DNA of 64,000 bases from NCBI RefSeq assembly GCF_036507355.1, contig NZ_AP027877.1. One strand, written 5' to 3'. This document shows positions 13,203-51,978 of the stretch, one piece after another (positions within the stretch are counted from its first letter, which is position 1; the number at the start of each line of letters is the position of its first letter). Under the pieces are notes generated by a model. That model did not search any database. It was given only the letters and a program-made list of their open reading frames with translations, and was not told the origin of the DNA. The DNA is from Escherichia coli. GTDB lineage: Bacteria; Pseudomonadota; Gammaproteobacteria; Enterobacterales; Enterobacteriaceae. The position numbers and the translations under genes were made by a program.

Positions 13203-13206
13203 AGGA

Positions 13207-17093: not shown

Positions 17094-17110
17094 GTATGTC
17101 AGGAGGACAT

Positions 17111-18862: not shown

Positions 18863-18909
18863 TTTTTTGGCATATACAGGGCGGCAAAGTCGCCCTGTCA
18901 GGAGGTTTT

Positions 18910-20199
18910 ATGTTACTGGCAGGCGCTATTTTTGTCCTGACCATTGTTTTGGTTATCTGGCAACCAAAGGGATTAGGGATCGGCTGGAGTGCAATGCTGG
19001 GCGCGGGACTGGCTCTGATATCAGGCGTTGTGCATGTGGGCGATATTCCGGTGGTGTGGAATATCGTCTGGAACGCGACGGCGACCTTTATTGCCGTAAT
19101 TATTATCAGCCTGCTGCTTGATGAGTCCGGTTTTTTCGAATGGGCAGCGCTGCACGTTTCCCGCTGGGGTAACGGTCGTGGACGTTTGCTCTTTACGTAT
19201 ATCGTTCTGCTCGGTGCGGCGGTGGCGGCACTGTTTGCCAACGATGGTGCGGCACTTATTCTGACGCCGATAGTCATCGCCATGCTGCTGGCATTAGGGT
19301 TCAGCAAAGGCACCACGCTGGCATTCGTCATGGCTGCCGGTTTTATTGCCGATACGGCCAGCCTGCCGCTTATCGTGTCGAACCTGGTGAATATAGTCTC
19401 GGCGGACTTCTTTGGACTGGGCTTCACTGAGTATGCGTCGGTAATGGTGCCGGTGGATATTGCCGCTATTATCGCCACGCTGGTGATGCTGCATCTGTTC
19501 TTCCGCAAAGATATTCCACCGACTTACGACCTGGCTCTCCTGAAAGCACCGGCAAAGGCGATTAAAGATCTGGCAACCTTCAGAACCGGCTGGATAGTTT
19601 TAATTCTTCTGCTGGTTGGGTTCTTTGTCCTCGAGCCGCTCGGTATTCCCGTTAGCGCGATTGCGGCTGTTGGAGCTGTGATCCTGTTTGCTGTAGCTAA
19701 ACGAGGCCATGCCATTAACACCGGCAAAGTGCTGCGCGGTGCGCCATGGCAGATCGTCATCTTCTCATTGGGGATGTACCTGGTGGTCTACGGTCTGCGC
19801 AACGCCGGGCTAACCGAATACCTTTCAGGTGTGCTGAACGTACTGGCGTATAAAGGACTCTGGGCCGCAACGCTGGGTACTGGTTTCCTGACGGCTTTCC
19901 TCTCTTCCATCATGAACAACATGCCTACCGTGCTGGTTGGCGCTCTCTCGATCGATGGAAGCACCGCATCCGGCGTTATTAAAGAGGCGATGATCTACGC
20001 CAACGTGATTGGCTGCGATCTGGGGCCGAAAATTACACCTATTGGTAGCCTGGCAACGCTGCTCTGGCTGCATGTACTTTCACAGAAGAATATGACCATC
20101 ACCTGGGGATACTATTTCCGCACCGGGATCGTCATGACTCTGCCTGTGCTGTTTGTAACGCTGGCCGCGCTGGCGCTACGTCTCTCTTTCACTTTGTAA
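18910..20199 (+). CDS. arsB: arsenite efflux pump ArsB
   Basis: 429-aa polytopic membrane protein, ArsB family. Confidence 0.92.
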
Positions 20200-20211
20200 T
20201 GAGATACTGAT

Positions 20212-20637
20212 ATGAGCAACATCACCATTTATCACAACCCGGCCTGCGGCACGTCGCGTAATACGCTGGAGATGATCCGCAACAGTGGTACTGAACCGAC
20301 CGTAATTCTTTACCTTGAGACTCCACCGTCTCGCGATGAGCTGGTCAAACTCATTGCAGATATGGGCATTTCAGTCCGGGCTTTGCTGCGCAAAAACGTC
20401 GAGCCTTATGAAGAACTGGGGCTTGCAGAAGATAAGTTTACTGACGATCAGTTAATCGGCTATATGCTGCAGCATCCGATCCTGATTAACCGCCCGATTG
20501 TGGTGACACCGTTGGGAACGCGCCTGTGCCGTCCTTCCGAAGTGGTACTGGATATTCTTCCGGATGCGCAAAAAGGCGCATTTGCAAAGGAAGACGGCGA
20601 GAAAGTCGTTGATGAAACAGGTAAACGATTGAAATAA
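20212..20637 (+). CDS. arsC: arsenate reductase (glutaredoxin-coupled) ArsC
   Basis: 141-aa ORF MSNITIYHNPACGTSRNTLEMIR with catalytic Cys12. Confidence 0.92.
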   Translation: MSNITIYHNPACGTSRNTLEMIRNSGTEPTVILYLETPPSRDELVKLIADMGISVRALLRKNVEPYEELGLAEDKFTDDQLIGYMLQHPILINRPIVVTPLGTRLCRPSEVVLDILPDAQKGAFAKEDGEKVVDETGKRLK

Positions 20638-20643
20638 ATATAA

Positions 20644-20661
20644 AGGGGGCTGATGCCCCCT
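20644..20661. terminator. hairpin between convergent arsC and acetyltransferase genes
   Basis: AGGGGGC-TGAT-GCCCCCT stem-loop. Confidence 0.5.
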
Positions 20662-20671
20662 TATTCCTGCC

Positions 20672-21208
20672 TCAGAGCATACGATCTGAATCTTCTGGCA
20701 GAGTACTATTCCCTTCACCAAGTTTCATTTGCAGCAAAACCGTGTCAAGCCAGCGGCCATGCTTGAAACCAATGTCCTTTAATGTACCTATTTCAGTAAA
20801 TCCTGCGCGGATATGAAGCGCTACAGAAGCGACGTTAGCGCTGTCACCCACAACAGCAATCATCTGGCGATAGCCTTCGGACTCGGCCCATTTTAATGCA
20901 TGATCGAGCAGTGCTTTTCCGACGCCCTGTCGCTGATAAGCCGAATCAATATATATCGAATTTTCGACCGTATACCGATAGGCATGGCGTTCGCGGTAAC
21001 GGGAAATATAACAGTAGCCGATGACCGTATCGCCATGCAGAGCGACATACCATGGGAATCCTCGAGACTGAATGCTCCTCAGTCGGTTAAGCATTTCCTG
21101 CGTATCCGGAGGTTCGGTTTCGAAGCTACCTGTACCATGCAGAACATGGTGAGCATAGATATTGCGTATCGCGGTAATGTGCTGTTCTTCAGCATTAATA
21201 ATGTGCAT
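20672..21208 (-). CDS. GNAT N-acetyltransferase, phosphinothricin/arsinothricin acetyltransferase-like (ArsN-like)
   Basis: 178-aa ORF with GNAT acetyl-CoA motif QRQGVGKALL; PAT/Bar-like; located in an ars cluster, where ArsN1-type enzymes occur. Confidence 0.6.
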   Translation of the reverse strand: MHIINAEEQHITAIRNIYAHHVLHGTGSFETEPPDTQEMLNRLRSIQSRGFPWYVALHGDTVIGYCYISRYRERHAYRYTVENSIYIDSAYQRQGVGKALLDHALKWAESEGYRQMIAVVGDSANVASVALHIRAGFTEIGTLKDIGFKHGRWLDTVLLQMKLGEGNSTLPEDSDRML

Positions 21209-21332
21209 CGTGTTACTCCAGTAATGGTGTTTTACAAACTACCGGAATTCGCGACAGCAGGTTAAGTACTTAAACTTATAACCTGTATAAGCAAAAGTTT
21301 GGCTGCAGTAAATGGGGCCGTAGCCCCATCTA

Positions 21333-22034
21333 TTAGCCTGCCATTTTTGCCAGCAGAGCCGCACCCACTGGTTCTTCGTTCTGCAGTGGCGTTAATGCAA
21401 TACGCTTTGCAAACTGCTCTGCAACGTCATTTATCAGCGGCAGTTCGCGACTGGCTCGGGTTACCAGGAACGGTGAGGACGGTTTCGCAGCAGCCAGACT
21501 GCTATTGATTACCCATGCCCATGGTTCAATTTCAGCCCGACGCAAATCCTGTTGCAGGTTTGCCGCTTCCAGCACCGGTGTCGTTTCGGCAAGCGTCACG
21601 ATAATCACCTTCGTCTTCTCCGGGTCATCGGCCAGAGACTGCTGGGGACGCCGGTTAAGGTCGGATTCTTCAATCAACCACCGCTCATCTTCAGGTAATG
21701 CCTGCAATGTTTCAGGCAGGCAAATATCCAGCGTTGAGATTGCATCAGTGGATGGATCAGTTAATGGGGCATCATCTTCCAGATCAACGAATTCCCTGGT
21801 GGTGCGGTACTCATCAATCAGCAGATTCCTCGCCGCCCGATACAGCCAGGCTCGCGGATTCTCCATTTCGCAGAAACTGTCTGAATGAGCGCGGGCACGC
21901 AGGAATAGCTCTTGTAGAAGGTCTGCTGCTTTTTCGCTATCACCTGTCTTCTATGTCAGAAAGCGAGAGAGTTCGGCTTCATGTTGCTGCCAGAACACGC
22001 TCATGCAGTTGTTGAATGCCGTTACATCACTCAT
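21333..22034 (-). pseudogene. degenerate ECF sigma factor-like gene with in-frame amber stop, fused to a 3' fragment of arsA
   Basis: Minus-strand frame from ATG 22034 reads MSDVTAFNNCMSVFWQQHEAELSRFLT-stop (TAG = plus 21951-21953), then ...ENPRAWLYRAARNLLIDEYR (ECF region 2-like), ending in KVIIVTLAETTPVLEAANLQQDLRRAEIEPWAWVINSSL, which parallels the ArsA C-terminus. Confidence 0.6.
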
Positions 22035-23812: not shown

Positions 23813-24790
23813 TCACTCTAATGCTTTTTGAGCAGCAAGTTCAAGTTCACTTTTTCCATGAAGTGCCAAAGACATATGGCATTCCGCTAGAAGGCAATAA
23901 CATTCTGTTTTTAGCGTCTGTATATCACTTTTATTTTGTAATCCATCAAATATAGTCATGGCCCTGTAAATGCTTTCAGGGGTGAACTCGTAAAGTTCTT
24001 TCTTTCCGGCTAACATTTCATCTGATAAATAATGATTCTTATATCCTTGGTCCTGCTTAGCTAATCTTACAGATCGTTCTGGTTTATGTACCGTTTGAAG
24101 GATATTATCTATAATAAATTGTGATGTATTATGTAGTTCATCAACAGGGAGATGATTACTGGCGATGAGGAAAAGGTTTTTAGCGTCGATCAACTCAATG
24201 TATAAAGTGTTCACTGCATTATTCTGGTTTATTCTTCCTGTAACGAAATAATCTGGCTTGAATCTGCTCAAGAATGAATTTTGAGATATGTGGTCATTAC
24301 AAAAATTTGTCGCAGCCATCGGATAGGTATAGAGACCATCGATTTTTTTATTTGAAATGATTTGTACTAATTCCTGATTAAGTATTAATGGATCCAGTGT
24401 ATTCAATGAAGTGGTGAAAGGGAATATAGCTATGGAATAGTCTGAAGTATTATCTTCATTAATTTTAGTTTTGAAAACCTGCCCGCTGAAACGATAACCT
24501 TTCCGGTAGATTGTTTCTATGCAGCGATCATAGCCAATTTTTTCAAAAATGCAGCGCAAAGAATAGATACATCTTGTCAGGGACTCGTCACTAACAATAA
24601 TATTTTTCCATACTGATTCGATGATCATATCTTTCAGTACAACATGACCAGCGGATTCAAGTAATACTATTAATACACCTAACTCTTTCGGTGGAATATA
24701 AACTTGCTCATTTCCTTGAGTAAGAATTCCATCTTCCGTGAGCGTTAATCCCTCAAGAAAATGATATGAGAATTTATTTTCTAAGTCCAT
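23813..24790 (-). pseudogene. ygeH: ygeH-like HilA/ToxR-type regulator (ETT2), 3'-truncated by the IS3-family element
   Basis: 325 aa with N-terminal winged-helix region; the reading frame stops on the TGA that is the first triplet of the IS terminus; K-12 YgeH is about 458 aa (recall). Confidence 0.65.
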
Positions 24791-25861: not shown

Positions 25862-26266
25862 TCATATTATCAATTTCCATTTTTCGATCAAAATTAAAAA
25901 GGGGATTTTTGCGAAGGGGCGAATGTCGTTTGTTTTTTTTTCTTTATTATGTCTGGTGATGAGGGGGGATAGAACGTCGGTGCATATAGTAGAGAATTTA
26001 TCCAGGTCTAAATTATTCTCTATTTTGGTCAGTTTTATGAGTTCATTTGTAGCCATACTCATTAAATCATCTGTTATCGGAAATTTATATATGCTCATAG
26101 CAGATAATATTGCTTGCTGAATTATTTCTTCAGAAAAATCCGCTATCTTTATTGACAAATCATGTATTTGATATTTTCCTCCAAGAGATTCTTGTTCAAT
26201 ATAATTTAAACCAGACCTCATAGTAATTTTAACTGGATTAACGAATTTTTCTTCATTTTTCTTCAT
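25862..26266 (-). CDS. ETT2-associated hypothetical protein (ygeF-like)
   Basis: 134-aa AT-rich ORF in the ygeF position relative to ygeG; no motif support. Confidence 0.35.
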   Translation of the reverse strand: MKKNEEKFVNPVKITMRSGLNYIEQESLGGKYQIHDLSIKIADFSEEIIQQAILSAMSIYKFPITDDLMSMATNELIKLTKIENNLDLDKFSTICTDVLSPLITRHNKEKKTNDIRPFAKIPFLILIEKWKLII

Positions 26267-28963: not shown

Positions 28964-29656
28964 TTAATGTTGGACCGAATGTGAACGAATAAATAACTCG
29001 TTTATTTTACCACCCATTCTCTTTTCGATTCGTTGCTTGTACGCGTAGATGCTACGGATATCCATATCCAGAACTTCAGTAATCTGATATGGGTTATAAC
29101 CAGAAACCATATACCCCATTATGGTGAATTCCATCTGAGTTAATGTGTTACCTCTGGTAAATGATAAATAACGACCAATAAATAGTTGTCTGATCTTTTC
29201 ATTGGCAACATCAAGACCATCATCATTATATATGACAGCAGATATTGCAGAGTTGTGCTTTCGCCAGTAGTTAGCTAACGATTGCATATTGCGGTCGCTG
29301 ACTAAAACAATCCCCATGTCAGTACTTGCAAGATAGTCAATCCAGTCTTTTTCAAGGAATAGACGTAAAAAACTTACTGAAAAATCGACAAAAATATATC
29401 CGCTTAATCTCGCATTGTGGTTTTTTGTTAAGATACCTTCCACCACACCACGATTAAAATATGAACTTTCTTCGGGCCACATACAAAAACACGAGTTTGC
29501 GCAATACTGAAAACGCGGTGACTCTTCTGGCATTATTTGGCAATGCATTGAGCAACTATTGCATGTAAGACTTTTATAACGACTACAAAGCCCCATGTTA
29601 AGAACCTCCCTATCCGTATATAATTGCATAATTTCATTGGTTATTGATGATGTCAA
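28964..29656 (-). CDS. yqeH: LuxR-family (GerE-type HTH) regulator YqeH
   Basis: 230 aa with C-terminal HTH (LTQMEFTIMGYMVSGYNPYQITEVLDMDIRSIYAYKQRI). Confidence 0.6.
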   Translation of the reverse strand: MTSSITNEIMQLYTDREVLNMGLCSRYKSLTCNSCSMHCQIMPEESPRFQYCANSCFCMWPEESSYFNRGVVEGILTKNHNARLSGYIFVDFSVSFLRLFLEKDWIDYLASTDMGIVLVSDRNMQSLANYWRKHNSAISAVIYNDDGLDVANEKIRQLFIGRYLSFTRGNTLTQMEFTIMGYMVSGYNPYQITEVLDMDIRSIYAYKQRIEKRMGGKINELFIRSHSVQH

Positions 29657-30055
29657 TACACCATGATTTTGTAATGTTGCTGGGAAAAATTGCGATTAAT
29701 CTGTATTTGCTATAATTCTGATTAAGACATTTAAAAATGCATTTCTCGTTATTAAATATGATTATGTTTCACTGATTTAATCTTGCATGGTTGAGAGTGG
29801 TCCAGATAACTATCTCATGGTATGAGAATATCTATATCGCAAATTGTTTTTGAATGACCAGAAGATATCTTGCGAATCTAAGTTATGCATCTTAAATAGT
29901 CTTATTTAAGATGTTCAGATCTCTTTGTGTGTTTAACTAACTGATAATTCTAGGATATGATGAGAGAAGTGATAGGGCGGAATAATAACAAATGAACATT
30001 ATGAAAAATGGAATGGTTCAAAATTGTAGTAATTTTGAACCATTCACAATGGATA

Positions 30056-31285
30056 TTAGCTAAAGAACATTACCGATACGCACAGAATACCCACGATCAG
30101 CGTAATCAGATTTCCGATGGAACGCCAGGGTTTAAGCGCCGGGATGAGATACGTTGACAGCGTAGGCATGATGAAAAGTATCATGGCAATGAGTGGGCCG
30201 CTGATCGCATAAATCATCGAAATCGCGTTCGGGTTAATGCAACAAACAATGAAGGTGATCAGCGATACCAACATAATTGATAGTGCGCGGTTAAATGCAC
30301 GACTTTTCTTTACACCAACCTGCTGTAATGTTGTTTTGACGACCTCTGTGGCACCTTCAATAACGCCAAAGTACGTACCCAGGAATGATTTCGACATGGC
30401 AACTACTGCGACAATAATCCCGGAAATTGACAACCATGCTGGGGCGTTCGGCAGCATAGAAAGCGCCGATAAAATGGTGACCCCTTCTTCTTTAGCCGCT
30501 TCAATATACGAAGGTGGAATAGAAAGCAGGCAGCTAAAGACAAAGAACAGTACACTTATGCAGATGATGAGATAAGCGACTTTCATAATTTTTTTGCATT
30601 TATCCATAGCGTGTTCGCCATATTTTTCACGTCTGTCTATGGCAAACGTAGAAATAATGGGCGTATGGCTAAAGGCGAAAACCATCACGGGAATCGATAT
30701 CCATATCTGGTGAAGGGTATTCTGATTGAACTCTACCTGGGTTGTTAATAGATCAGGTTGCCAACTACCGACAAGGTAAATGGAAAGAAATAAGAAATAG
30801 GCAATCAATGGGAATACCAAAAATCCCATTACCCGAATAGTGGCATGACGTCCCATCAGAAAAATGAGATTCAGAATTAATACAACACCCAGACTCACCA
30901 ACATACGGATGCGAAGATCAATAACCATATGCTTTGCCAGCTGTTCCGTAAGTGAGTTGGTAATTGCCACTGCATATATCAACACGACGACAAAAAAGGC
31001 GATGAAGTACAGCGTGGTAATCAGATTACCTATCTTCTTGCCATAGTAGTGTGTTACTGCGCCCGTTATCCCTTCACCTGCTGATGTTTTCGATGAGAGG
31101 ATGAACTGACATAAGGCTTTATGTGGCCAGTATGTTAAAGGCCAGGCGACCAGAGCAGTAATAAACAGGACCACAGCCCCTGCCGAACCTAACTGAATAG
31201 GAAGGAAGAGCGTGCCTGCACCAACGGCTGTGCCGTAGAGCGCGAAACTCCACAGAGTTTCTTCTTTTGACCAAATATTAGACAT
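30056..31285 (-). CDS. yqeG: HAAAP-family amino acid (serine-type) transporter YqeG
   Basis: 409-aa polytopic membrane protein resembling SdaC/TdcC. Confidence 0.85.
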   Translation of the reverse strand: MSNIWSKEETLWSFALYGTAVGAGTLFLPIQLGSAGAVVLFITALVAWPLTYWPHKALCQFILSSKTSAGEGITGAVTHYYGKKIGNLITTLYFIAFFVVVLIYAVAITNSLTEQLAKHMVIDLRIRMLVSLGVVLILNLIFLMGRHATIRVMGFLVFPLIAYFLFLSIYLVGSWQPDLLTTQVEFNQNTLHQIWISIPVMVFAFSHTPIISTFAIDRREKYGEHAMDKCKKIMKVAYLIICISVLFFVFSCLLSIPPSYIEAAKEEGVTILSALSMLPNAPAWLSISGIIVAVVAMSKSFLGTYFGVIEGATEVVKTTLQQVGVKKSRAFNRALSIMLVSLITFIVCCINPNAISMIYAISGPLIAMILFIMPTLSTYLIPALKPWRSIGNLITLIVGILCVSVMFFS

Positions 31286-31536
31286 TATCTGAACGTATCA
31301 TCTACAAATTAAACAAAATAGAGGGCAATTTACCATAAACCAGGTTAAGTATGGGAGATTAACGCCCTATCTACCCCTCTATTGGTGGGTTAGTGGTTGC
31401 AAACCTTACGTGCCAGTTATGTCTCTGACTGCTGGTCAGGCGTATTTCCTTTGTGATAAAAATCACTTTTTTTAAACAATTAAGATAACTGTAATTAACA
31501 ATCATTTACTATTGCACTGTTAATTGGTGCGAGGTT

Positions 31537-32721
31537 GTGATGAAAGACGTTGTGATTGTCGGGGCGTTACGGACACCTATCGGCTGCTTTCGTGGTGCGT
31601 TAGCGGGTCATTCCGCCATGGAACTTGGTAGTCTGGTCGTGAAAGCGTTAATAGAACGTACCGGCGTGCCTGCATATGCGGTGGATGAAGTGATTCTTGG
31701 CCAGGTGTTGACTGCAGGGGCAGGGCAGAATCCGGCAAGGCAATCGGCTATTAAAGGTGGCCTTCCTAATAGCGTTTCTGCAATCACGATTAATGACGTT
31801 TGCGGTTCCGGGCTTAAAGCACTGCATCTGGCTACTCAGGCGATACAGTGTGGCGAGGCTGATATTGTCATCGCCGGTGGCCAGGAAAACATGAGCCGCG
31901 CACCACATGTTCTGACTGATAGCCGCACCGGTGCACAGCTTGGCAATAGCCAGTTGGTTGACAGTCTTGTGCATGATGGGTTGTGGGATGCCTTCAATGA
32001 TTATCATATTGGTGTCACCGCCGAAAATCTGGCTCGCGAATATGGCATCAGCCGTCAGTTGCAGGATGCTTACGCACTTAGCTCGCAACAAAAAGCGCGA
32101 GCGGCGATTGACGCCGGACGATTTAAAGATGAGATCGTCCCGGTAATGACCCAAAGTAATGGTCAGACGTTGGTTATTGATACCGATGAACAGCCACGCA
32201 CTGACGCCAGTGCAGAAGGCTTAGCCCGTTTAAATCCTTCATTTGATAGTCTCGGTTCTGTGACAGCGGGTAATGCATCATCCATAAACGATGGCGCAGC
32301 TGCGGTAATGATGATGAGCGAAGCCAAAGCACGAGCGTTGAATTTACCCGTGCTGGCCCGCATCCGCGCATTTGCCAGCGTTGGTGTAGATCCAGCATTG
32401 ATGGGAATTGCGCCGGTGTATGCGACCCGCCGTTGCCTGGAGCGTGTGGGCTGGCAGTTGGCTGATGTCGATCTTATCGAGGCTAATGAAGCGTTTGCTG
32501 CACAGGCGCTTTCGGTTGGCAAGATGCTTGAATGGGATGAGCGTCGGGTCAATGTCAATGGTGGCGCGATCGCACTCGGTCACCCGATAGGCGCTTCCGG
32601 TTGCCGAATCCTGGTTTCTCTGGTTCATGAAATGGTGAAACGTAATGCCCGCAAAGGACTGGCAATGCTTTGTATCGGCGGGGGCCAGGGCGTAGCATTG
32701 ACCATTGAACGTGACGAGTAG
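31537..32721 (+). CDS. yqeF: acetyl-CoA C-acetyltransferase (thiolase) YqeF
   Basis: Thiolase motifs (active-site Cys in NDVCGSGLKAL; C-terminal GHPIGASGCRIL, CIGGGQGVA). Confidence 0.9.
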   Translation: MMKDVVIVGALRTPIGCFRGALAGHSAMELGSLVVKALIERTGVPAYAVDEVILGQVLTAGAGQNPARQSAIKGGLPNSVSAITINDVCGSGLKALHLATQAIQCGEADIVIAGGQENMSRAPHVLTDSRTGAQLGNSQLVDSLVHDGLWDAFNDYHIGVTAENLAREYGISRQLQDAYALSSQQKARAAIDAGRFKDEIVPVMTQSNGQTLVIDTDEQPRTDASAEGLARLNPSFDSLGSVTAGNASSINDGAAAVMMMSEAKARALNLPVLARIRAFASVGVDPALMGIAPVYATRRCLERVGWQLADVDLIEANEAFAAQALSVGKMLEWDERRVNVNGGAIALGHPIGASGCRILVSLVHEMVKRNARKGLAMLCIGGGQGVALTIERDE

Positions 32722-33007
32722 CTCTGCATTTCCTCCTTACCGATAAATATCTGCCGTCATTAATCTGTTGAATAATGATGGCTGGTGAGTCGACATACCT
32801 TTTCAGGACTCCCTGATTTTTCCATTCTCATGACATATTCGTGATCGACACTGCACTTTTTTTAATCCTTAACTTAAAAATGAAACATTGTTTTATTTTT
32901 AATTGAAAACCCTATCCCATGGGCATATCATCCCCTTATAGAGAAAACGAAACAGTGTTTCACTATCGTTTTCTATTTTCACGCTTCACTGATTATCGGA
33001 GGTTGAT

Positions 33008-33843
33008 GTGGACGTAAGACAGAGCATCCACAGTGCGCACGCAAAAACACTGGATACCCAAGGGCTGCGCAATGAATTTTTGGTTGAAAAGGTATTTGTC
33101 GCCGATGAGTACACCATGGTTTACAGCCACATTGACCGAATTATTGTTGGCGGCATTATGCCGGTAACTAAAACGGTTTCCGTTGGCGGGGAAGTTGGTA
33201 AACAACTCGGCGTAAGCTATTTCCTTGAACGTCGCGAGTTAGGTGTTATCAATATTGGCGGTGCCGGTACGATTACTGTCGATGGTCATGCTATGAAATC
33301 GGTCACCGCGACGCCCTGTATGTTGGTAAAGGTGCAAAAGAAGTTGTCTTTGCCAGTATTGATACCGCCACTCCGGCAAAGTTTTATTACAATTGCGCAC
33401 CTGCGCATACGACGTATCCCACCAAAAAAGTCACACCGGACGAAGTATCTCCAGTCACGTTAGGCGATAACCTCACCAGTAACCGTCGCACAATTAACAA
33501 ATATTTTGTCCCGGATGTGCTGGAAACCTGCCAATTGAGTATGGGGCTGACGGAGCTGGCTCCAGGTAACTTGTGGAACACCATGCCGTGTCACACTCAC
33601 GAGCGCCGGATGGAAGTTTATTTCTATTTCAATATGGATGATGACGCCTGCGTTTTCCACATGATGGGGCAGCCGCAAGAAACGCGTCATATTGTAATGC
33701 ATAACGAGCAGGCGGTGATCTCCCCGAGCTGGTCGATCCATTCCGGCGTCGGAACCAAAGCTTATACCTTTATCTGGGGCATGGTCGGTGAAAACCAGGT
33801 CTTTGATGATATGGACCATGTGGCCGTTAAAGATTTGCGCTAG
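33008..33843 (+). pseudogene. kduI: kduI (5-dehydro-4-deoxy-D-glucuronate isomerase) with an apparent single-base frameshift
   Basis: Two ORFs in different frames (33008-33463 and 33517-33843) together span a kduI-sized locus; the second frame is open back to 33292 and reads [24 protein letters not shown]...; frames meet at about 33288-33290. Confidence 0.75.
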
Positions 33844-33872
33844 TTGTGGGCATAAACGAATAAGGTATTGTT

Positions 33873-34634
33873 ATGATTTTAAGTGCATTTTCTCTCGAAG
33901 GTAAAGTTGCGGTCGTCACTGGTTGTGATACTGGACTGGGCCAGGGGATGGCGTTGGGGCTGGCGCAAGCGGGCTGTGACATTGTTGGCATTAACATCGT
34001 TGAACCGACTGAAACCATCAAGCAAGTCACGGTGCTGGGGCGTCGTTTTTTAAGCCTGACCGCCGATCTGCGAAAGATTGATGGCATTCCAGCACTGCTG
34101 GATCGCGCGGTAGCTGAGTTTGGTCATATTGATATCCTGGTGAATAACGCCGGATTGATTCGCCGCGAAGATGCTCTCGAGTTCAGCGAAAAAGACTGGG
34201 ACGATGTCATGAACCTGAATATCAAGAGCGTATTCTTCATGTCTCAGGCAGCGGCGAAACACTTTATCGCGCAAGGCAATGGCGGCAAGATTATCAATAT
34301 CGCGTCAATGCTCTCCTTCCAGGGCGGGATCCGTGTGCCTTCTTATACCGCATCAAAAAGCGGTGTGATGGGCGTGACGCGATTGATGGCGAACGAATGG
34401 GCTAAACACAACATTAATGTTAATGCGATAGCTCCGGGTTACATGGCGACCAACAATACTCAACAATTGCGGGCAGATGAACAACGTAGCGCGGAAATTC
34501 TCGACCGCATTCCAGCTGGCCGTTGGGGACTGCCGAGTGACCTGATGGGGCCGGTAGTGTTCCTTGCCTCCAGCGCTTCAGATTATGTGAATGGTTATAC
34601 CATTGCCGTGGATGGCGGTTGGCTGGCGCGTTAA
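33873..34634 (+). CDS. kduD: 2-dehydro-3-deoxy-D-gluconate 5-dehydrogenase
   Basis: 253-aa SDR with TGCDTGLG cofactor motif and YTASK active site. Confidence 0.92.
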   Translation: MILSAFSLEGKVAVVTGCDTGLGQGMALGLAQAGCDIVGINIVEPTETIKQVTVLGRRFLSLTADLRKIDGIPALLDRAVAEFGHIDILVNNAGLIRREDALEFSEKDWDDVMNLNIKSVFFMSQAAAKHFIAQGNGGKIINIASMLSFQGGIRVPSYTASKSGVMGVTRLMANEWAKHNINVNAIAPGYMATNNTQQLRADEQRSAEILDRIPAGRWGLPSDLMGPVVFLASSASDYVNGYTIAVDGGWLAR

Positions 34635-34655
34635 TTCATTCTTCTTACTTTTATG

Positions 34656-34681
34656 ACCCTGCCGCATGGCAGGGTTTTTTA
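34656..34681 (+). terminator. intrinsic terminator after kduD
   Basis: ACCCTGCCGCATGGCAGGGT followed by a T6 run. Confidence 0.75.
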
Positions 34682-34948
34682 TATCTGTAGATCATCATAA
34701 TCCATATCATGGTTATGAAATAATCCATATCAATTATCAATTAATGAACTTTATGAATTTTATCTGCTTTAAAATTAGGTGGTTAATAATAATCTCAATA
34801 ATTCAACTTAATTTGAAAATTGGAATATCCATCACATAACGACATGTCGCAGCAATTTAATCCATATTTATGCTGTTTCCGACCTGACACCTGTGTGAGT
34901 TGTTCACGTATTTTTTCACTATGTCTTACTCTCTGCTGGCAGGAAAAA

Positions 34949-36367
34949 ATGGTTACTATCAATACGGAATCTGCTTTAACGCCACGTTCTTTGCGGGATA
35001 CGCGGCGTATGAATATGTTTGTTTCGGTAGCTGCTGCGGTCGCAGGATTGTTATTTGGTCTTGATATCGGCGTAATCGCCGGAGCGTTGCCGTTCATTAC
35101 CGATCACTTTGTGCTGACCAGTCGTTTGCAGGAATGGGTGGTCAGTAGCATGATGCTCGGTGCAGCAATTGGTGCGCTGTTTAATGGTTGGCTGTCGTTC
35201 CGCCTGGGGCGTAAATACAGCCTGATGGCGGGGGCTATCCTGTTTGTACTCGGTTCGATAGGGTCCGCTTTTGCGACCAGCGTAGAGATGTTAATCGCCG
35301 CTCGTGTGGTGCTGGGCATTGCTGTCGGGATCGCGTCTTACACCGCTCCTCTGTATCTTTCTGAAATGGCAAGTGAAAACGTTCGCGGTAAGATGATCAG
35401 TATGTACCAGTTGATGGTCACACTCGGCATTGTGCTGGCGTTTTTATCCGATACAGCGTTCAGTTATAGCGGTAACTGGCGCGCAATGTTGGGGGTTCTT
35501 GCTTTACCAGCAGTCCTGCTGATTATTCTGGTGGTCTTCCTGCCAAATAGCCCGCGCTGGCTAGCGGAAAAGGGGCGTCATATTGAGGCAGAAGAAGTGT
35601 TGCGTATGCTGCGTGATACGTCGGAAAAAGCGCGAGAAGAACTCAACGAAATTCGTGAAAGCCTGAAGTTAAAACAGGGCGGTTGGGCACTGTTTAAGAT
35701 CAACCGTAACGTCCGTCGTGCTGTGTTTCTCGGTATGTTGTTGCAGGCGATGCAGCAGTTTACCGGTATGAACATCATCATGTACTACGCACCGCGTATC
35801 TTCAAAATGGCGGGCTTTACGACGACAGAACAACAGATGATTGCGACTCTGGTCGTGGGGCTGACCTTTATGTTCGCCACCTTTATTGCGGTGTTTACGG
35901 TAGATAAAGCAGGGCGTAAACCGGCTCTGAAAATTGGTTTCAGCGTGATGGCGTTAGGCACTCTGGTGCTGGGCTATTGCCTGATGCAGTTTGATAACGG
36001 TACGGCTTCCAGTGGCTTGTCCTGGCTCTCTGTTGGCATGACGATGATGTGTATTGCCGGTTATGCGATGAGCGCCGCGCCAGTGGTGTGGATCCTGTGC
36101 TCTGAAATTCAGCCGCTGAAATGCCGCGATTTTGGCATCACCTGCTCAACGACGACAAACTGGGTGTCGAATATGATTATCGGCGCGACCTTCCTGACAC
36201 TACTTGATAGCATTGGCGCTGCCGGTACGTTCTGGCTCTACACTGCGCTGAACATTGCGTTTGTAGGCATCACTTTCTGGCTCATTCCGGAAACCAAAAA
36301 TGTCACGCTGGAACATATCGAACGCAAACTGATGGCAGGCGAGAAGTTGAGAAATATCGGCGTCTGA
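34949..36367 (+). CDS. araE: arabinose:H+ symporter
   Basis: MFS sugar porter; start taken at [17 protein letters not shown] (472 aa); the upstream in-frame extension in the track is not coding. Confidence 0.92.
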
Positions 36368-36373
36368 TTTCAC

Positions 36374-36406
36374 GGGCCGGATGTGCTGTACATCCGGCCC
36401 TTTTTT
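36374..36406 (+). terminator. intrinsic terminator after araE
   Basis: GGGCCGGATG-TGCTGTA-CATCCGGCCC followed by TTTTTT. Confidence 0.8.
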
Positions 36407-36495
36407 CGTTAATAGAGATTGGGCACCTGGCCGTTGAGGCGTTTGTCTCGTTCCTTATTCAGCCTTGTTGCGGTAACACACATCAGGAGAGAGGA

Positions 36496-37188
36496 ATGAA
36501 AACAATTGGTTTGCTGGGAGGAATGAGCTGGGAATCCACTATTCCTTACTATCGTCTGATAAATGAAGGCATTAAACAGCGGCTTGGTGGGCTTCACTCT
36601 GCGCAAGTGCTGCTACATAGCGTCGATTTTCATGAAATAGAAGAGTGCCAGCGTCGCGGTGAGTGGGACAAAACCGGGGATATTCTGGCTGAGGCGGCGC
36701 TTGGCTTACAGCGGGCGGGCGCAGAAGGCATTGTGTTATGTACCAATACGATGCACAAAGTGGCGGATGCTATAGAGTCTCGTTGCTCTCTGCCTTTCTT
36801 ACACATTGCGGATGCCACCGGACGTGCAATTACCGGGGCCGGAATGACTCGTGTGGCGCTGCTGGGTACGCGTTACACCATGGAACAGGATTTTTATCGC
36901 GGGCGGCTGACGGAACAATTTTCCATCAATTGTCTTATTCCTGAAGCGGATGAACGGGCGAAGATTAATCAGATTATTTTTGAAGAACTGTGTCTGGGGC
37001 AATTTACCGAAGCGTCACGCGCTTATTATGCGCAAGTGATTGCTCGCCAGGCAGAACAGGGGGCGCAGGGTGTCATTTTTGGCTGTACGGAAATTGGTTT
37101 ACTGGTGCCAGAAGAGCGCAGTGTTCTGCCTGTGTTTGATACCGCGGCGATCCATGCCGAGGATGCTGTCGCTTTTATGCTGTCGTAG
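36496..37188 (+). CDS. ygeA: Asp/Glu-type amino acid racemase YgeA
   Basis: 230-aa Asp/Glu/hydantoin racemase-family protein; position between araE and lysR. Confidence 0.85.
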
Positions 37189-38110
37189 CTGACGACAGAA
37201 TAGCGTCAAGAGAAGTGACCAGTTTCGGTAACCCCGCTTGTAAATGCTCACTAAACGCCTGCACCAGCGCTGATGACGGGCGATGCAGAGGGCGGATCAG
37301 GCTGACGGTGAACGGAACCGCAATACTGAACCGCCGCACCACTAAACCGCTTGCCGCATAATCCAGTGCGGTGAGCGGGTTAACCACCGAAACACCTACC
37401 CCCGCCCGTACCATTGCGCACACTGACGCGGCGCTGTGGGTTTCTACGATCATGCGTCGTTTAACCTGATGTTCAGTAAACAATTGATCCAGCAACTGGC
37501 GATAGCTGTCAGTACGGGAAAGGCTGATGTAGTTCTCACTGTGAAAATCTTCTGGCGTTAATATCTCTTTTGTCGTCAGCGGATGACCCGGAGGTAACAC
37601 ACACACTTCATCTAAAGAGAGTAATTCGGTTCGTTCTGTTCCCGCAGGCGTATGGAGCGTCTCAGTGAGTCCTAAATCATGACGCTGGGCCGAGAGCCAC
37701 TCTTCAAGTAGCGGTGATTCCTGGGGCACGATATTTAAGCTGACATCGGGATAACGTGCCAGAAAGAGTTGCAGGAGCTGCGGTAAAAAAGATTGCGAAA
37801 AGACCGGCAGGCAGGCAATAGACAGTTCTCCCTGGCGAAACTCGCGCAGACTTTCTGCAGCGCTGACAATTCGATCCAGTCCGTACCAGGATCGTTGCAC
37901 TTCTTCAAACAGACGCAGTCCTTGCACGGTAGGATGTAATCGTCCACGTACGCGCTCAAACAATTTCAGCCCGATCACCTTCTCAAAGCGCGCCAGTTCG
38001 CGGCTGACGGTTGGCTGTGAGGTGTGTAGCAGGTGTGCTGCCTCAGTCAGGCTTCCGGCGGTCATTACCGCATGAAAAATTTCAATATGACGTAAGTTAA
38101 CGGCGGCCAT
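37175..38110 (-). CDS. lysR: LysR transcriptional activator of lysA
   Basis: 311-aa LTTR with N-terminal HTH; divergent from lysA. Confidence 0.92.
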
Positions 38111-38231
38111 TAGCGCTCTCTCGCAATCCGGTAATCCATATCATTTTTGCATAGACTCGACATAAATCGATATTTTTTATTCTTTTTATGATGTGGCGTA
38201 ATCATAAAAAAGCACTTATCTGGAGTTTGTT

Positions 38232-39494
38232 ATGCCACATTCACTGTTCAGCACCGATACCGATCTCACCGCCGAAAATCTGCTGCGTTTGCCCGCTGAA
38301 TTTGGCTGCCCGGTGTGGGTCTACGATGCGCAAATTATTCGTCGGCAGATTGCAGCGCTGAAACAGTTTGATGTGGTGCGCTTCGCGCAGAAAGCCTGTT
38401 CCAATATTCATATTTTGCGCTTAATGCGCGAGCAGGGCGTGAAAGTGGATTCCGTCTCATTGGGGGAAATCGAACGCGCGTTGGCGGCGGGATATAATCC
38501 GCAGACGCATCCCGATGACATTGTTTTTACTGCGGATGTTATCGATCAGGCGACCCTCGAGCGCGTCAGTGAATTGCAAATTCCGGTGAATGCGGGTTCT
38601 GTTGATATGCTCGACCAACTGGGCCAGGTTTCGCCAGGGCATCGGGTATGGCTGCGCGTTAACCCGGGGTTTGGTCACGGACATAGCCAAAAAACCAATA
38701 CCGGTGGCGAAAACAGCAAGCACGGTATCTGGTACACCGATCTGCCCGCCGCACTGGACGTGATACAACGTCATCATCTGCAGCTGGTCGGCATTCACAT
38801 GCACATTGGTTCTGGCGTTGATTATGCCCATCTGGAACAGGTGTGTGGTGCGATGGTGCGTCAGGTCCTCGAATTCGGTCAGGATTTACAGGCTATTTCT
38901 GCGGGCGGTGGGCTTTCTGTTCCTTATCAACAGGGTGAAGAGGCGGTTGATACCGAACATTATTATGGTCTGTGGAATGCCGCGCGTGAGCAAATTGCCC
39001 GCCATTTGGGCCACCCTGTGAAACTGGAAATTGAACCGGGTCGCTTCCTGGTAGCGCAGTCTGGCGTATTAATTACTCAGGTGCGGAGCGTCAAACAAAT
39101 GGGTAGCCGCCACTTTGTGCTTGTTGATGCCGGGTTCAACGATCTGATGCGCCCGGCAATGTACGGTAGTTACCACCATATCAGTGCTCTGGCAGCTGAT
39201 GGTCGTTCTCTGGAACACGCGCCAACGGTGGAAACCGTCGTCGCCGGGCCGTTATGTGAATCGGGCGATGTCTTTACCCAGCAGGAAGGGGGAAATGTCG
39301 AAACCCGCGCCTTGCCGGAAGTGAAGGCGGGTGATTATCTGGTACTGCATGATACAGGGGCATATGGCGCATCAATGTCATCCAACTACAACAGCCGTCC
39401 GCTGTTACCAGAAGTTCTGTTTGATAATGGCCAGGCGCGGTTGATTCGCCGTCGCCAGACCATCGAAGAATTACTGGCGCTGGAATTGCTTTAA
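38232..39494 (+). CDS. lysA: diaminopimelate decarboxylase
   Basis: 420-aa PLP-dependent fold-III decarboxylase. Confidence 0.93.
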   Translation: MPHSLFSTDTDLTAENLLRLPAEFGCPVWVYDAQIIRRQIAALKQFDVVRFAQKACSNIHILRLMREQGVKVDSVSLGEIERALAAGYNPQTHPDDIVFTADVIDQATLERVSELQIPVNAGSVDMLDQLGQVSPGHRVWLRVNPGFGHGHSQKTNTGGENSKHGIWYTDLPAALDVIQRHHLQLVGIHMHIGSGVDYAHLEQVCGAMVRQVLEFGQDLQAISAGGGLSVPYQQGEEAVDTEHYYGLWNAAREQIARHLGHPVKLEIEPGRFLVAQSGVLITQVRSVKQMGSRHFVLVDAGFNDLMRPAMYGSYHHISALAADGRSLEHAPTVETVVAGPLCESGDVFTQQEGGNVETRALPEVKAGDYLVLHDTGAYGASMSSNYNSRPLLPEVLFDNGQARLIRRRQTIEELLALELL

Positions 39495-39500
39495 CTGCGG

Positions 39501-40532
39501 TTAGTCGCTGGTTGCATGATGACTTGCCTCCAGCGACGGAGTTGACACTGAATGGCGACGTACCAGCGTCGGACTAAAGACATTAGTGATTTCCGGGAGA
39601 GGGCGATTATCCGCCAGCGCCAAAGCCAGTTCGGCAGCCTGGGTCGCCATCGTCACGATTGGATAACGCACGGTGGTCAGGCGCGGTCGCACATAGCGTG
39701 ACACCAGCACATCATCAAAGCCAATTAACGAAATCTCACCTGGTACATCAATACCATTATCATTGAGCACGCCCATCGCACCCGCCGCCATTGAATCGTT
39801 ATAACAGGCTACCGCAGTGAAATTTCTTCCTCGTCCCAAAAGCTCGGTCATTGCCTGTTCGCCGCCGCTTTCGTCTGGTTCGCCAAATGTCACCAGCCGG
39901 TCATTGGCCGCAATACCACTTTCAGCAAGGGCATCGTAATACCCTTGCAGACGATCTTCGGCGTCAGAAATAGAGTGGTTAGAGCACAGATAACCAATGC
40001 GGGTATGACCTTGCTGAATTAAATGACGCGTTGCCAGCCAGGCACCGTAACGATCGTCCAGAGCAATACAACGGTTTTCAAAGCCAGGCAGGATACGGTT
40101 GATCAGCACCATACCGGGCATTTGTTTCATTAATGAGGCTAAATCGGCATCCGGGATCATTTTGGCATGGACGACCAACGCAGCACAGCGATGGCGGATC
40201 AGTTGCTCAATAGCCTGACGCTCTTTTTGTTCGTTGTGGTAACCGTTGCCAATCAATAAGAAATTACCGGTGTGATAAGCCACCTGTTCGACCGCTTTCA
40301 CCATTGCACCGAAAAACGGATCGGAAACATCACCAACGACCAGACCGACTGTTTCAGTGGTCTGCTGTGCCAGCGCACGGGCGTTGGCGTTCGGGTGATA
40401 GCTAAGAGACTCCATTGCACTATGCACAGCCAGCCGGGACGCTTCGCTGGCTTTGGGTGAATTATTAATGACGCGGGAAACGGTGGCGACTGAAACGCCT
40501 GCCAGTCGGGCTACATCCTTTATGGTCGCCAT
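39501..40532 (-). CDS. galR: galactose operon repressor GalR (LacI family)
   Basis: 343 aa; N-terminal HTH MATIKDVARLAGVSVATVSRVIN. Confidence 0.92.
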   Translation of the reverse strand: MATIKDVARLAGVSVATVSRVINNSPKASEASRLAVHSAMESLSYHPNANARALAQQTTETVGLVVGDVSDPFFGAMVKAVEQVAYHTGNFLLIGNGYHNEQKERQAIEQLIRHRCAALVVHAKMIPDADLASLMKQMPGMVLINRILPGFENRCIALDDRYGAWLATRHLIQQGHTRIGYLCSNHSISDAEDRLQGYYDALAESGIAANDRLVTFGEPDESGGEQAMTELLGRGRNFTAVACYNDSMAAGAMGVLNDNGIDVPGEISLIGFDDVLVSRYVRPRLTTVRYPIVTMATQAAELALALADNRPLPEITNVFSPTLVRRHSVSTPSLEASHHATSD

Positions 40533-40746
40533 GAAAATACCTTAGTGGGTAAACGCTTACATTCTTTCAGTGTTACGGAAAACGCCCGTTGGTTCAAGGG
40601 GCGGTGTGTTTTCATCAGTGGGAATGTGAGCCAAACGCAAATAAGTAAGACAAAAAAAGAGATTGCAAACCTTTGGTTACACTTTGCGAAACGCTGTTGC
40701 GATTGACCGCTGGTGGCGTTTGGCTTCAGGTTGCTAAAGTGGTGAT

Positions 40747-40828
40747 CCCAGAGGTATTGATAGGTGAAGTCAACTTCGGGTTGAGCACATGAATTACACC
40801 AGCCTGCGCAGATGCGCAGGTTTTTTTT
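40747..40828 (+). ncRNA. omrB: small regulatory RNA OmrB
   Basis: CCCAGAGGTATTGATAGGTGAAGTCAACTTCGGGTTGAGC... ending in the CCTGCGCAGATGCGCAGG-T9 terminator; galR-aas intergenic location. Confidence 0.85.
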
Positions 40829-40943
40829 TGCCGGTCATCAATCTGTAACAGTAACCGACAATTTACACACCTCGTTGCATTTCCCTTCATTCCTTTGCGT
40901 TTTCTCGCTGGCGAAGAGTCGTCGTGCAGACCACAATCAAGAT

Positions 40944-41031
40944 CCCAGAGGTATTGATTGGTGAGATTATTCGGTACGCTCTTCGTACCCTGTCTCTTGC
41001 ACCAACCTGCGCGGATGCGCAGGTTTTTTTT
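40944..41031 (+). ncRNA. omrA: small regulatory RNA OmrA
   Basis: CCCAGAGGTATTGATTGGTGAGATTATTCGGTACGCTCTTCGTACC... with CCTGCGCGGATGCGCAGG-T8 terminator; tandem with omrB and sharing the 5' seed. Confidence 0.85.
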
Positions 41032-41097
41032 CGCACCTAATTTACTGTCGCTCGCGTTCTTTATCTCGTGTAATCTCCCTCCATTCGCTTTTACTGA

Positions 41098-44464
<3,367 letters not shown>

Positions 44465-44496: not shown

Positions 44497-45537
44497 TTAT
44501 GGTGCCGGATAAGTATAAACCTGATGTACCGCTTCAATTTCAGCTAATACGTCTTCGCTTAACTCCAGATGTAAACTTTCGACGTTAGTTTTCAGCTGCT
44601 CCATCGTGGTTGCGCCCAGCAGAGTGCTGGCAACAAACGGTTGACGGCGTACAAAAGCGAGCGCCATCTGAGCAGGATCCAGTCCATGACGTCTGGCAAT
44701 ATCAACATACGCCGCGACGGCTTTTTGCGTTTGCTCACCGCTATAGCGGGTGAACCGACTAAAGAGCGTATTACGTGCGCCAGCGGGTTTTGCACCGTTG
44801 AGATATTTCCCGGTCAGCGTGCCGAAACCCAGGCACGAATAGGCCAGCAGTTCGACCCCTTCATACTGGCTGACTTCTGCCAGACCTACTTCAAAACTGC
44901 GGTTTAACAGACTGTAAGGGTTCTGAATGGTGACAATACGCGGCAGATCGTGTTTGTCCGCCAGATGCAGGTAGCGCATTACGCCAAATGCAGTTTCGTT
45001 CGACACGCCGATATAACGAATTTTTCCCGCTCGTTGGTACTCTGCCAGTGCGTCCAGCGTATCCAGCAGCGAAACCGCAGGCGCAGAATCTGTCCAGCTA
45101 TAACCGAGTTTGCCGAAGCAGTTGGTTGGGCGCTGCGGCCAGTGCACCTGATAAAGATCGAGGTAATCAGTCTGCAGACGCTTGAGGCTGTCATGCAGCG
45201 CTTCGCGGATATTCTTCCGATCCAGCGCCTGATCCGGGCGGATGCCCTTGTCATTATTGCGCGACGGTCCGCTCACTTTGGAGGCGATAATTAACTTTTC
45301 GCGGCTGCCATGTTTCGCCAGCCAGTTGCCGACGTAGGTTTCGGTTAACCCTTGCGTTTCGGGGCGCGGAGGTACTGGGTACATTTCGGCAACGTCGATA
45401 AGGTTAATGCCCTGAGCGACGGCATAGTCGAGTTGTGCGTGGGCGTCGGCTTCGCTGTTCTGTTCACCAAACGTCATCGTGCCAAGCCCCAGCGTGCTGA
45501 CTTCCAGCGAACTGTGGGGTATACGGTGATATTGCAT
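44497..45537 (-). CDS. tas: aldo-keto reductase Tas
   Basis: 346-aa AKR-family protein. Confidence 0.9.
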   Translation of the reverse strand: MQYHRIPHSSLEVSTLGLGTMTFGEQNSEADAHAQLDYAVAQGINLIDVAEMYPVPPRPETQGLTETYVGNWLAKHGSREKLIIASKVSGPSRNNDKGIRPDQALDRKNIREALHDSLKRLQTDYLDLYQVHWPQRPTNCFGKLGYSWTDSAPAVSLLDTLDALAEYQRAGKIRYIGVSNETAFGVMRYLHLADKHDLPRIVTIQNPYSLLNRSFEVGLAEVSQYEGVELLAYSCLGFGTLTGKYLNGAKPAGARNTLFSRFTRYSGEQTQKAVAAYVDIARRHGLDPAQMALAFVRRQPFVASTLLGATTMEQLKTNVESLHLELSEDVLAEIEAVHQVYTYPAP

Positions 45538-45644
45538 AGCCGTTTCCTTTTTATAATCACGACATAAGGAATATAAAAATGGCAGAGGGAAGGGAAAAGG
45601 GAAAGAGAAAAATCTTAAGGCCAGCCGGATGCTGACCTTATTTG

Positions 45645-45863
45645 TTAACGTTCAATTATTTGCGAAACATCATCACGATTAATTTGCATCGCGTTACCTT
45701 GCTGATCGTGATAACTCACCAGCCCGGTATCATCATCAATTTCAGGTTTTCCATCGGTCAAAATCATACGGCCATCTTTGGTCGCCATGACGTAATCACT
45801 GGAACACCCGGAAACAGCAAACGCCAGTCCGACTGCAGAAATCATTACTGCCCATTTTTTCAT
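45645..45863 (-). CDS. ygdR: small lipoprotein YgdR
   Basis: 72 aa with signal peptide and lipobox (AVSGC). Confidence 0.85.
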
Positions 45864-46000
45864 CCGGTTATCCTCATTTGGCCCACCTATGATAATAGTC
45901 TGTTTATAAACTGACGTTATATATCTTGAAAGCAGGAAAATCTTAAACTGTGAGGGTAACAGGAGTGAGTACGCCCTCCCGCAGGAGAGCGTACGGAGTA

Positions 46001-46714
46001 TCAGAGCGGGTTCTTTTTGTTGCGAATCAGGTTGAGGCTTTCAACCGCAATAGAGAAGAACATCGCGAAGTAGATGTAACCTTTCGGTACGTGGATGTCG
46101 AAACTTTCCAGAATCAGGGTAAAGCCCACCAGAATCAGGAAAGAGAGCGCCAGCATTTTTACCGAAGGATGGCGCTCGACAAAATCACCAATCGAGCGCG
46201 CGGCGAACATCATCACGCCTACGGCAATCACCACGGCGGCCATCATAATAAACAGGTGATCTGACAGACCCACAGCGGTAATCACCGAGTCGAGGCTGAA
46301 GATAATATCCAGCAGCATAATCTGCACGATAGCGCCGAGGAATGATGAAACGCGTGTTTTCAGCCCTTCTTCTTCACCTTCAATGGATTCGTGGATTTCC
46401 TTGCTGGCTTTCCAGATAAGGAACAAGCCACCCAGAAGCAGAATCAAATCACGGGCGGAAATTTCCTGACTGAATATTGTAAAAAGCGGATTCGTCAGGC
46501 GCGTAACCCAGGCGATTGATGCCAGCAGCGCCAGACGCATAACCATGGCTCCCGCCAACCCCAGACGGCGCGCATGAGCACGTTGTGCTGTGGGGAGCTT
46601 TGCCACCACCAGAGAAAGGAAAATAATATTGTCGATCCCAAGAACGATCTCTAGCAGCGTCAGCGTACCGAGCGCAAGCCAGGCGTTAGGATCGGTTATC
46701 CATGCAAATAACAT
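46001..46714 (-). CDS. ygdQ: TerC-family inner membrane protein YgdQ
   Basis: 237-aa polytopic membrane protein. Confidence 0.85.
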
Positions 46715-46782
46715 CTAAAAAGCCCTGCCAAAAAAATGAAGCGGTAATTATATGCCCGGAAAGCGGCAGGTCAAAGCGATGG

Positions 46783-47472
46783 CTACTGGATCAGAAAATG
46801 ACGGGCCAGCAGCGCACTGGTGAAATTTTTCTTCAAATAAAAGCCGCGCGGCAGCGTCAGAATCCGTTCGCCCCGGGAACCAATGGCTTCGGTAAGCGCT
46901 TTCGCATTCGCTGCTTTCGGTCGTATCTGTAAATATTCCCCGTGACGAGCGGTAATCCGCTCAACCTGACCGAGAACAATCATATCCATTAATTCTTCCC
47001 AGTCTTCGCGTAGCTGCCGGTCTTCCTCTTCATTCGGGCTCCACAGTAACGGTGATCCTATGCGACGCTGCGCCAGCGGGATGCTGCGCTCGCCTTCAAC
47101 CGGTATCCACAGTACGCGTTTGAGCTTGTGGCGTACGTGGCTGGTTTCCCAGGTCACCCCGCTATTACCCGTTAACGGGGCAACACAAACGAATGTTGTT
47201 TCCAGCGGACGACCAAGACTATCCACAGGGATAGTTTTAAGTTCCACGCCCAGAGCAGCAAAATCTTGCTCAGGTTTACTCCCTGCGCTGGCACCTAGCC
47301 AGATCTCCAGTAACACGCCAATCCAGCCTTTATCGCGTTTTAAATTCTCTGGCGTAACCAGCCCGGCAAGTGCCGCCAGTTCTCCCAATGTATAACCAGA
47401 AAGTTGCTGTGCTTGCGCTAACAACTGTTCTTCAGTTTCGGGAGGAGAGAGCAGTGGGCGAGGTTGGGACAT
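46783..47472 (-). CDS. mutH: DNA mismatch repair endonuclease MutH
   Basis: 229 aa; [33 protein letters not shown] typical of MutH. Confidence 0.95.
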
Positions 47473-48156
47473 GTCATGATACCTTGGTTAAAAAACAAAC
47501 AGCAATTATGTGCCGAATATTCGCAGTGTAACTTTTTCCACATGCGTTGTTCAATTCTCTGATTTATATTGCTTTTTAGGTTGCCGGTAATCGAGTTGCG
47601 CAACACTGCAACGGGTTTTCCAAATCTGGTCACTGAAAATAAACAGGATCTTACACCATGTTATCCACAGAAAGCTGGGATAACTGTGAAAAACCTCCAC
47701 TACTGTTTCCATTTACAGCCTTGACGTGCGACGAAACTCCAGTTTTTAGTGGTTCAGTGCTTAACTTAGTGGCACATTCTGTGGATAAATACGGCATTGG
47801 TTGATCTTTCGCCAACCCGTAAAAGAGAGGTGTGACCTGGGTCACGAATTACTCTTTTTCATTACTTAAATTACATGTAATGCATTGACTGATAATGAAT
47901 ATTTTAAAATGTCTATATCGGGCTTATTCAGAATGCTCCGGGTTTTCCCGTAGTAATTCCGTAGTTCTTCACAACTCTATCCACAGAAAAGGTGAATAAA
48001 AACGGCTATCCACCCCTTCCTCTGTTTATAACTCTGCACATAACTGTGAGTTATTCAATTGTTATTAGTGTGTAATGCTCTGCAGAGAGTGGTTTACCGT
48101 CTTCCTGGAGTATGAAACAATCATTCGTATATAAAGCTTTATATTGAGGTAGTCCG

Positions 48157-48687
48157 GTGATTGATGACGATGGCTACCGCCCAAACGTAGGTATCGTGAT
48201 TTGTAATCGCCAGGGGCAGGTAATGTGGGCCCGGCGATTTGGTCAGCACTCCTGGCAATTTCCGCAAGGCGGAATTAACCCCGGAGAATCCGCAGAGCAG
48301 GCGATGTACCGTGAATTGTTTGAAGAAGTAGGATTAAGCCGCAAAGACGTTCGAATCCTTGCTTCAACGCGTAACTGGTTGCGCTACAAATTACCGAAAC
48401 GTTTGGTGCGTTGGGACACGAAGCCGGTTTGTATCGGCCAAAAACAAAAATGGTTTCTCTTGCAGCTGGTGAGCGGCGATGCAGAAATCAATATGCAAAC
48501 CAGCAGTACACCAGAGTTTGACGGCTGGCGATGGGTAAGTTACTGGTATCCGGTCAGACAGGTGGTGTCATTTAAACGTGATGTCTACCGTAGGGTAATG
48601 AAAGAGTTCGCGAGTGTGGTGATGTCACTGCAGGAAAATACGCCAAAACCACAAAACGCATCTGCTTATCGACGTAAAAGAGGTTAA
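48157..48687 (+). CDS. rppH: RNA pyrophosphohydrolase (Nudix)
   Basis: 176 aa with Nudix box ([22 protein letters not shown]). Confidence 0.93.
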
Positions 48688-48699
48688 GTCACGCCAATT

Positions 48700-51972: not shown

Positions 51973-51978
51973 GGAACC

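Follow-up and report, generated by a model that had tools for sequence, protein, structure and literature searches.

We analysed a 64,000-nt stretch of an Escherichia coli contig (NZ_AP027877.1; hereafter the window) in which yqeF, kduI, kduD and araE lie in their usual E. coli order, spanning positions 31537-36367 (Table 1). The kduI reading frame begins with a GTG at 33008, preceded by the Shine-Dalgarno sequence GGAGGT at 32998-33003. The control region upstream of it is predicted to be intact, with two KdgR-type boxes placed around a promoter-like site. A scan with the box consensus, which reportedly goes back to Rodionov et al. 2004, gave two matches, compared with 0.02 expected by chance. 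An earlier note on this DNA, made from the sequence alone, had begun the gene with an ATG at 33008, which is incorrect, as the nearby ATG is at 33006 and is out of frame. The GTG is in fact embedded in an ATGTG motif (33006-33010), whose ATG opens an ORF of three codons (ATG TGG ACG TAA). A paper on AUGUG/GUGUG initiation sites (PMC9841429) includes K-12 kduI among its tabulated start codons and predicts no ambiguity for it. Downstream of kduI, we can confirm that kduD is intact, as the note had stated: its exact protein is present on at least 1000 contigs and scores above the cut-off of the KduD equivalog model. No terminator was found between kduI and kduD, and the terminator-like hairpin that we predict lies after kduD.

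Table 1. Features of the kduI locus and comparisons with the sister assemblies, in window coordinates.
Feature or comparison	Position	Strand	Basis or result
Intact kduI control region: KdgR-type boxes (32879-32897 and 32946-32964) around a promoter-like site (32903-32931)	32879-32964	+	Predicted
kduI, probable pseudogene (5-dehydro-4-deoxy-D-glucuronate isomerase)	33008-33843	+	Alignment; restored-protein NF002091 score; match to 1X8M
ORF translated from the native start, 151 aa (GenBank BED21091.1, 'hypothetical protein')	33008-33463	+	Translation, exact match
Site of the 1-bp deletion: codon 94 CAT versus CAA then T, one A of the AA pair gone	33287-33289	+	Comparators
Untranslated kduI remainder, residues 95-278 including H196, H198, E203 and H245	33289-33843	+	Frame translation
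A_AAA_AAG heptamer, in -1 register through the shifted frame alone	33424-33430	+	Slippery-site scan
kduD, intact, 253 aa, 29 nt 3' of kduI	33873-34634	+	Exact protein, equivalog model
Terminator-like hairpin and T run after kduD	about 34655-34686	+	Predicted
GCA_016660925.1 versus window	29040-30496		1 SNP
GCA_016660925.1 versus window	30497-43188 (12,693 nt)		2 SNPs and the kduI indel
GCA_016660925.1 versus window	44706-64000 (19,295 nt)		2 SNPs, 0 indels
GCA_021425525.1 versus window	29039-34706		3 SNPs, one T-run indel (29421) and the kduI indel
GCA_021425525.1 versus window	34812-43188 (8,377 nt)		No differences, 100% identical

When aligned with the intact kduI genes of E. coli PE164 and O145 RM9872, the gene in the window shows a single gap, being 836 nt long versus 837 nt in the intact form. 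At this place the window has GGTCATGC (C33287, A33288, T33289), where the references have GGTCAATGC. Apart from this position, the PE164 gene is 100% identical across all 836 nt, and the hexamer CAATGC is present in every comparator, including PE164, O145 RM9872, strain 48, Combat11I9 and the sister assemblies described below. Relative to its intact orthologues, the gene thus differs by a 1-bp deletion, whose length is not divisible by three and which interrupts the reading frame, as is the case in frameshift pseudogenes. The earlier note had proposed a single-base frameshift near 33288-33290 in a gene that would otherwise run for 278 codons, and both statements hold. It was also right that one base is missing, but it took that base to be a G, whereas all four references carry an A. 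Either GGTCAATGC or GGTCAGTGC at the site gives a single 278-codon frame, and Gln94 could be restored by a G as well (CAG); because the intact references read CAA at the gap, we take the lost base to be an A of the Gln94 codon. The description of the lesion as homopolymer-independent is essentially right, as the deleted base sits within an AA dinucleotide.

The frame that begins at the native start encodes 93 native residues, a histidine in place of Gln94, and 58 out-of-frame codons in all before a TAG at 33461-33463, for a total of 151 codons, in agreement with the claim that the first frame diverges into a nonsense tail ending at 33463. KduI residues 95-278 are read in the other frame (33289-33843), as far as the gene's own TAG at 33841-33843. 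That this second frame continues as native KduI to 33843 had been correctly noted; its opening position had been given as 33292, but the frame is already open from 33229, and both frames are open together over 33229-33460. We considered and rejected independent translation of the C-terminal part, as the second frame contains no ATG, GTG or TTG upstream of a GTG at 33517 and this GTG, the first start codon, is not preceded by a Shine-Dalgarno sequence. With no usable start codon, the downstream part would therefore not be made on its own. Ribosomes that start at GTG 33008, behind the GGAGGT, would make the 93 native residues followed by 58 unrelated ones before stopping, and the resulting protein would lack the whole second cupin barrel and the greater part of the first.

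Restoring the A yields a protein that scores 455.7 bits against NF002091, the NCBIfam equivalog model for KduI (curated cut-off of 250 bits), and that is identical to the E. coli KduI structure PDB 1X8M at 276 of 278 positions. The 151-aa product scores 111.7 bits against the same model and has no Pfam match, and the 108-aa ORF from 33517 scores 221.3 bits, both being below the cut-off. Orthology with kduI is supported by the sequence and by the gene order (yqeF-kduI-kduD-araE). By these measures, the DNA is kduI by descent, but it has no product that qualifies as KduI. The locus, the GTG start, the Shine-Dalgarno sequence and the upstream KdgR-type boxes are all shared with the gene for E. 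coli K-12 KduI (PDB 1XRU and 1X8M; NF002091; PF04962), and the window differs in having one A fewer in codon 94 and in encoding two fragments that each fall under the family cut-off. As this A is missing, no single ORF encodes the KduI enzyme. Residues H196, H198, E203 and H245, reported in the paper on the 1XRU structure to be the metal ligands of the second KduI cupin barrel, all lie 3' of codon 94, where translation from the native start is in the wrong frame to include them. We infer that the isomerase activity, which converts DKI to DKII, would be lost in a strain carrying the deletion.

The deletion was seen in a single record. A search with 61 nt centred on the junction found matches in 5,179 complete E. 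coli genomes, every one of them with a gap, and a 28-nt junction sequence had no match in the metagenome contig collection. The exact 151-aa product is found in one public record, BED21091.1, labelled 'hypothetical protein VEE46_08590' and belonging to a 4,643,937-bp E. coli chromosome; an exact look-up of this product found no other assembly encoding it. The proteins encoded next to it belong to the same chromosome, and a Shigella origin, considered because pseudogenes are numerous in Shigella, was dropped on these grounds. Exact-product look-ups for YqeF, YqeH, YqeI and the truncated island gene described below found nothing, and our search for literature on kduI pseudogenes found nothing relevant.

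The other members of the 90% cluster to which the 151-aa product belongs result from -1 frameshifts elsewhere in kduI that run to the same stop codon. Such alleles (P0002, P0003 and P0005; loci L004 and L007-L011) have a lesion like that in the window, with the same out-of-frame tail and stop, but their lesions lie at different positions and mostly in A or T runs. In the loci examined among them, yqeF, kduD and araE are also hit by numerous additional indels, a sign of noisy assemblies, whereas the window has just the one indel. In the kduI splits that come from poor sequence (L004, L007 and L009-L011), there are 5-18 indels, mostly in homopolymers, per 3.6-4.8 kb, and neighbouring genes are broken too. 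Two Shigella sonnei draft contigs with the 108-aa C-terminal ORF (L005 and L006) align to the window in broken pieces.

Near-identical sister strains were reached through rare alleles of YgeA, Aas and RecC, each present on approximately 5 to 9 contigs; the PtsP allele of the window was too common to be used for picking them. Two independent assemblies obtained in this way, GCA_016660925.1 and GCA_021425525.1, have an intact CAATGC and encode a KduI of 278 aa. Over roughly 33 kb, GCA_016660925.1 differs from the window by approximately five SNPs and the kduI indel alone, and in seven more contigs with the sister YqeF allele the neighbouring proteins were reported to be mostly the same. With kduI intact in such close relatives, the deletion is placed at the very tip of the lineage. 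The window assembly is not indel-noisy, since no other indel separates it from GCA_016660925.1 across this distance. The region 29040-64000 includes 141 homopolymer runs of at least 5 bases (34 of them of at least 6), and their lengths are concordant with those in the sister sequences that cover them. Strain 48, which is 98.99% identical to the window over 35.7 kb, differs from it by five indels, with the kduI deletion being the only one in a conserved gene. Sister assemblies this close can show that a frameshift arose on a terminal branch, and they also gauge the local indel error rate of an assembly.

The earlier note had named two readings, one in which kduI is truly a pseudogene and one in which the sequencing is at fault. 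This choice holds, and the intact near-identical sisters, along with the lack of any other indel over about 33 kb, favour mutation. We consider it likely that kduI became a frameshift pseudogene very recently, through a real loss-of-function mutation private to this strain, because of the identity to PE164, the intact near-identical sisters and the concordant homopolymer runs. The deletion probably arose through slippage at a two-base run. Two derived changes nearby are also private to the window, namely, 29510 C>A (YqeH L29F) and 31618 G>A (YqeF V27M). Both differ from the two sister assemblies and from the outgroups and, counted with the kduI deletion, they make three private changes within 3.8 kb; the remainder, from 35 to 64 kb, has two private changes at most. 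This 3.8-kb cluster could reflect chance, local mutation or weak assembly. The two amino acid replacements and an 8-bp duplication in the island described below are kinds of change that real mutation produces.

An assembly or sequencing error, in which the strain's kduI is intact and one A was dropped from the consensus, strikes us as rather unlikely, though it has several observations on its side. The deletion is a singleton allele known from one record alone, the remaining kduI sequence is 100% identical to intact alleles, near-identical sister assemblies have the gene intact, and many other public split kduI calls are plainly sequencing artefacts; a lone assembly error would look identical to a recent mutation. 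The three private differences clustered at 29510, 31618 and 33288 could likewise mark a stretch that is locally weak in assembly. Against an error, GCA_016660925.1 shows no second indel in its roughly 33 kb despite the 141 runs of five or more bases in 29040-64000, and one indel to about five SNPs is a normal ratio for real divergence. Furthermore, the site is an AA pair and not a long homopolymer, and has no GATC or CCWGG motif, and it is therefore not a typical context for long-read errors. Absence of the genome from the RefSeq collection would be no mark of poor quality, as its private YqeF allele has a WP_ accession.

Recoding at the kduI junction itself was rejected, as no slippery site was found there. 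Another way in which the gene might retain function is through leakiness, whereby a -1 slip at the heptamer A_AAA_AAG would return some ribosomes to the native frame and yield a full-length protein whose C-terminal cupin is functional. This heptamer is the slippery site of dnaX. It sits in register 136 nt 3' of the junction and is the sole X_XXY_YYZ site in the first frame, inside the stretch over which both frames are open. Even so, we regard such a slip as highly improbable. No stimulatory hairpin was identified (the fold of 33431-33500 has a z of 0.24, with 114 of 200 shuffled sequences folding at least as well), no Shine-Dalgarno-like sequence was seen upstream of the heptamer, and the product of a slip would keep about 46 garbled residues (94-139) within the first barrel. 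The two-frame layout is present in none of the 5,179 matched genomes, and the sister strains are single-frame, as are all relatives; recoding is therefore not being selected for. The window also provides a genuine programmed frameshift for comparison, in prfB, which has its full conserved signal. As in kduI here, prfB is read in two frames, but its +1 shift has a conserved Shine-Dalgarno and CUU UGA C signal and the gene is split in all strains, whereas no signal accompanies the junction in kduI and none of the relatives shares the split. The prfB gene lies at about 1860-2965, with its +1 signal, AGGGGGTATCTTTGAC, matched exactly at 1930-1945. It would be very surprising if the deletion were real and the gene nevertheless leaky, with a small share of ribosomes yielding a KduI that has 46 scrambled residues, an intact metal-binding cupin and some activity.

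If kduI is indeed a pseudogene produced by mutation, as we favour, the consequences for the strain may be modest. The Uxa/Uxu route is repressed by osmotic stress, and in that situation KduI and KduD help E. coli to use galacturonate and glucuronate (PMC3578941). A kduID-deficient strain was found to grow normally when unstressed and 1.5 to 2 times more slowly under osmotic stress (PMC3578941), and because this growth defect is only conditional, the loss of kduI can be tolerated. A strain without KduI would thus be expected to show slower growth on either of these sugar acids when osmotically stressed. The phenotype would be expected to be mild, and the sole reported phenotype concerns the joint loss of kduI and kduD (PMC3578941). 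The kduD gene may be affected as well, as approximately 380 nt of untranslated mRNA ahead of it may reduce its expression via Rho-dependent polarity.

A single annotation, as a frameshifted kduI pseudogene, would suit the locus best; its present annotation is the 'hypothetical protein' BED21091.1 and, apparently, another fragment. Should the deletion instead be an error, the record needs a one-base correction. Both the gene and this type of feature are already known, and a kduI pseudogene confined to a terminal branch is unremarkable, with little import beyond annotation.

The window contains several other features. Similarity to strains bearing ETT2 begins abruptly at 23816, with an ars island on the other side. 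The ygeH gene (23813-24790) is shortened to 325 aa from 458 aa, and the ETT2 type III secretion cluster is mostly absent. Compared with its relatives, a ygeF-like ORF on the minus strand (25862-26266) has 10 bp duplicated in tandem (ATTTTTCTTC) and a T run that differs by one T (25880 and 26245-26264), and the ygeF-like gene of strain 48 is likewise annotated as frameshifted.

The island itself is 11.4 kb long (10585-22007) and encodes a tyrosine integrase (10772-11998), DUF2326/ABC-three-component genes (13207-16173) and arsRDABC (16722-20637). Copies in CP060480.1 and CP173198.1 share 99.86-99.89% identity with it, whereas the recJ-prfB-lysS flank of those genomes is just 85% identical to the window; because the island is near-identical while this flank is not, it appears to have been shared horizontally between species. 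Within the island, a perfect 8-bp tandem duplication (CAAGACCA twice, 15403-15418) that is absent from three other island copies cuts the ABC-three-component CTD10 gene to 260 aa, compared with 315-332 aa elsewhere. This gene is probably a second small-indel pseudogene in the window. A tRNA-Gly(CCC) gene lies at 6339-6412, and between it and the island start at 10585 are approximately 4 kb (within 6339-10584) that include multi-copy, probably IS-like DNA, found at a median of 12 places per E. coli genome. In other genomes, copies of the island lie approximately 300 nt after the gene that precedes the tRNA.
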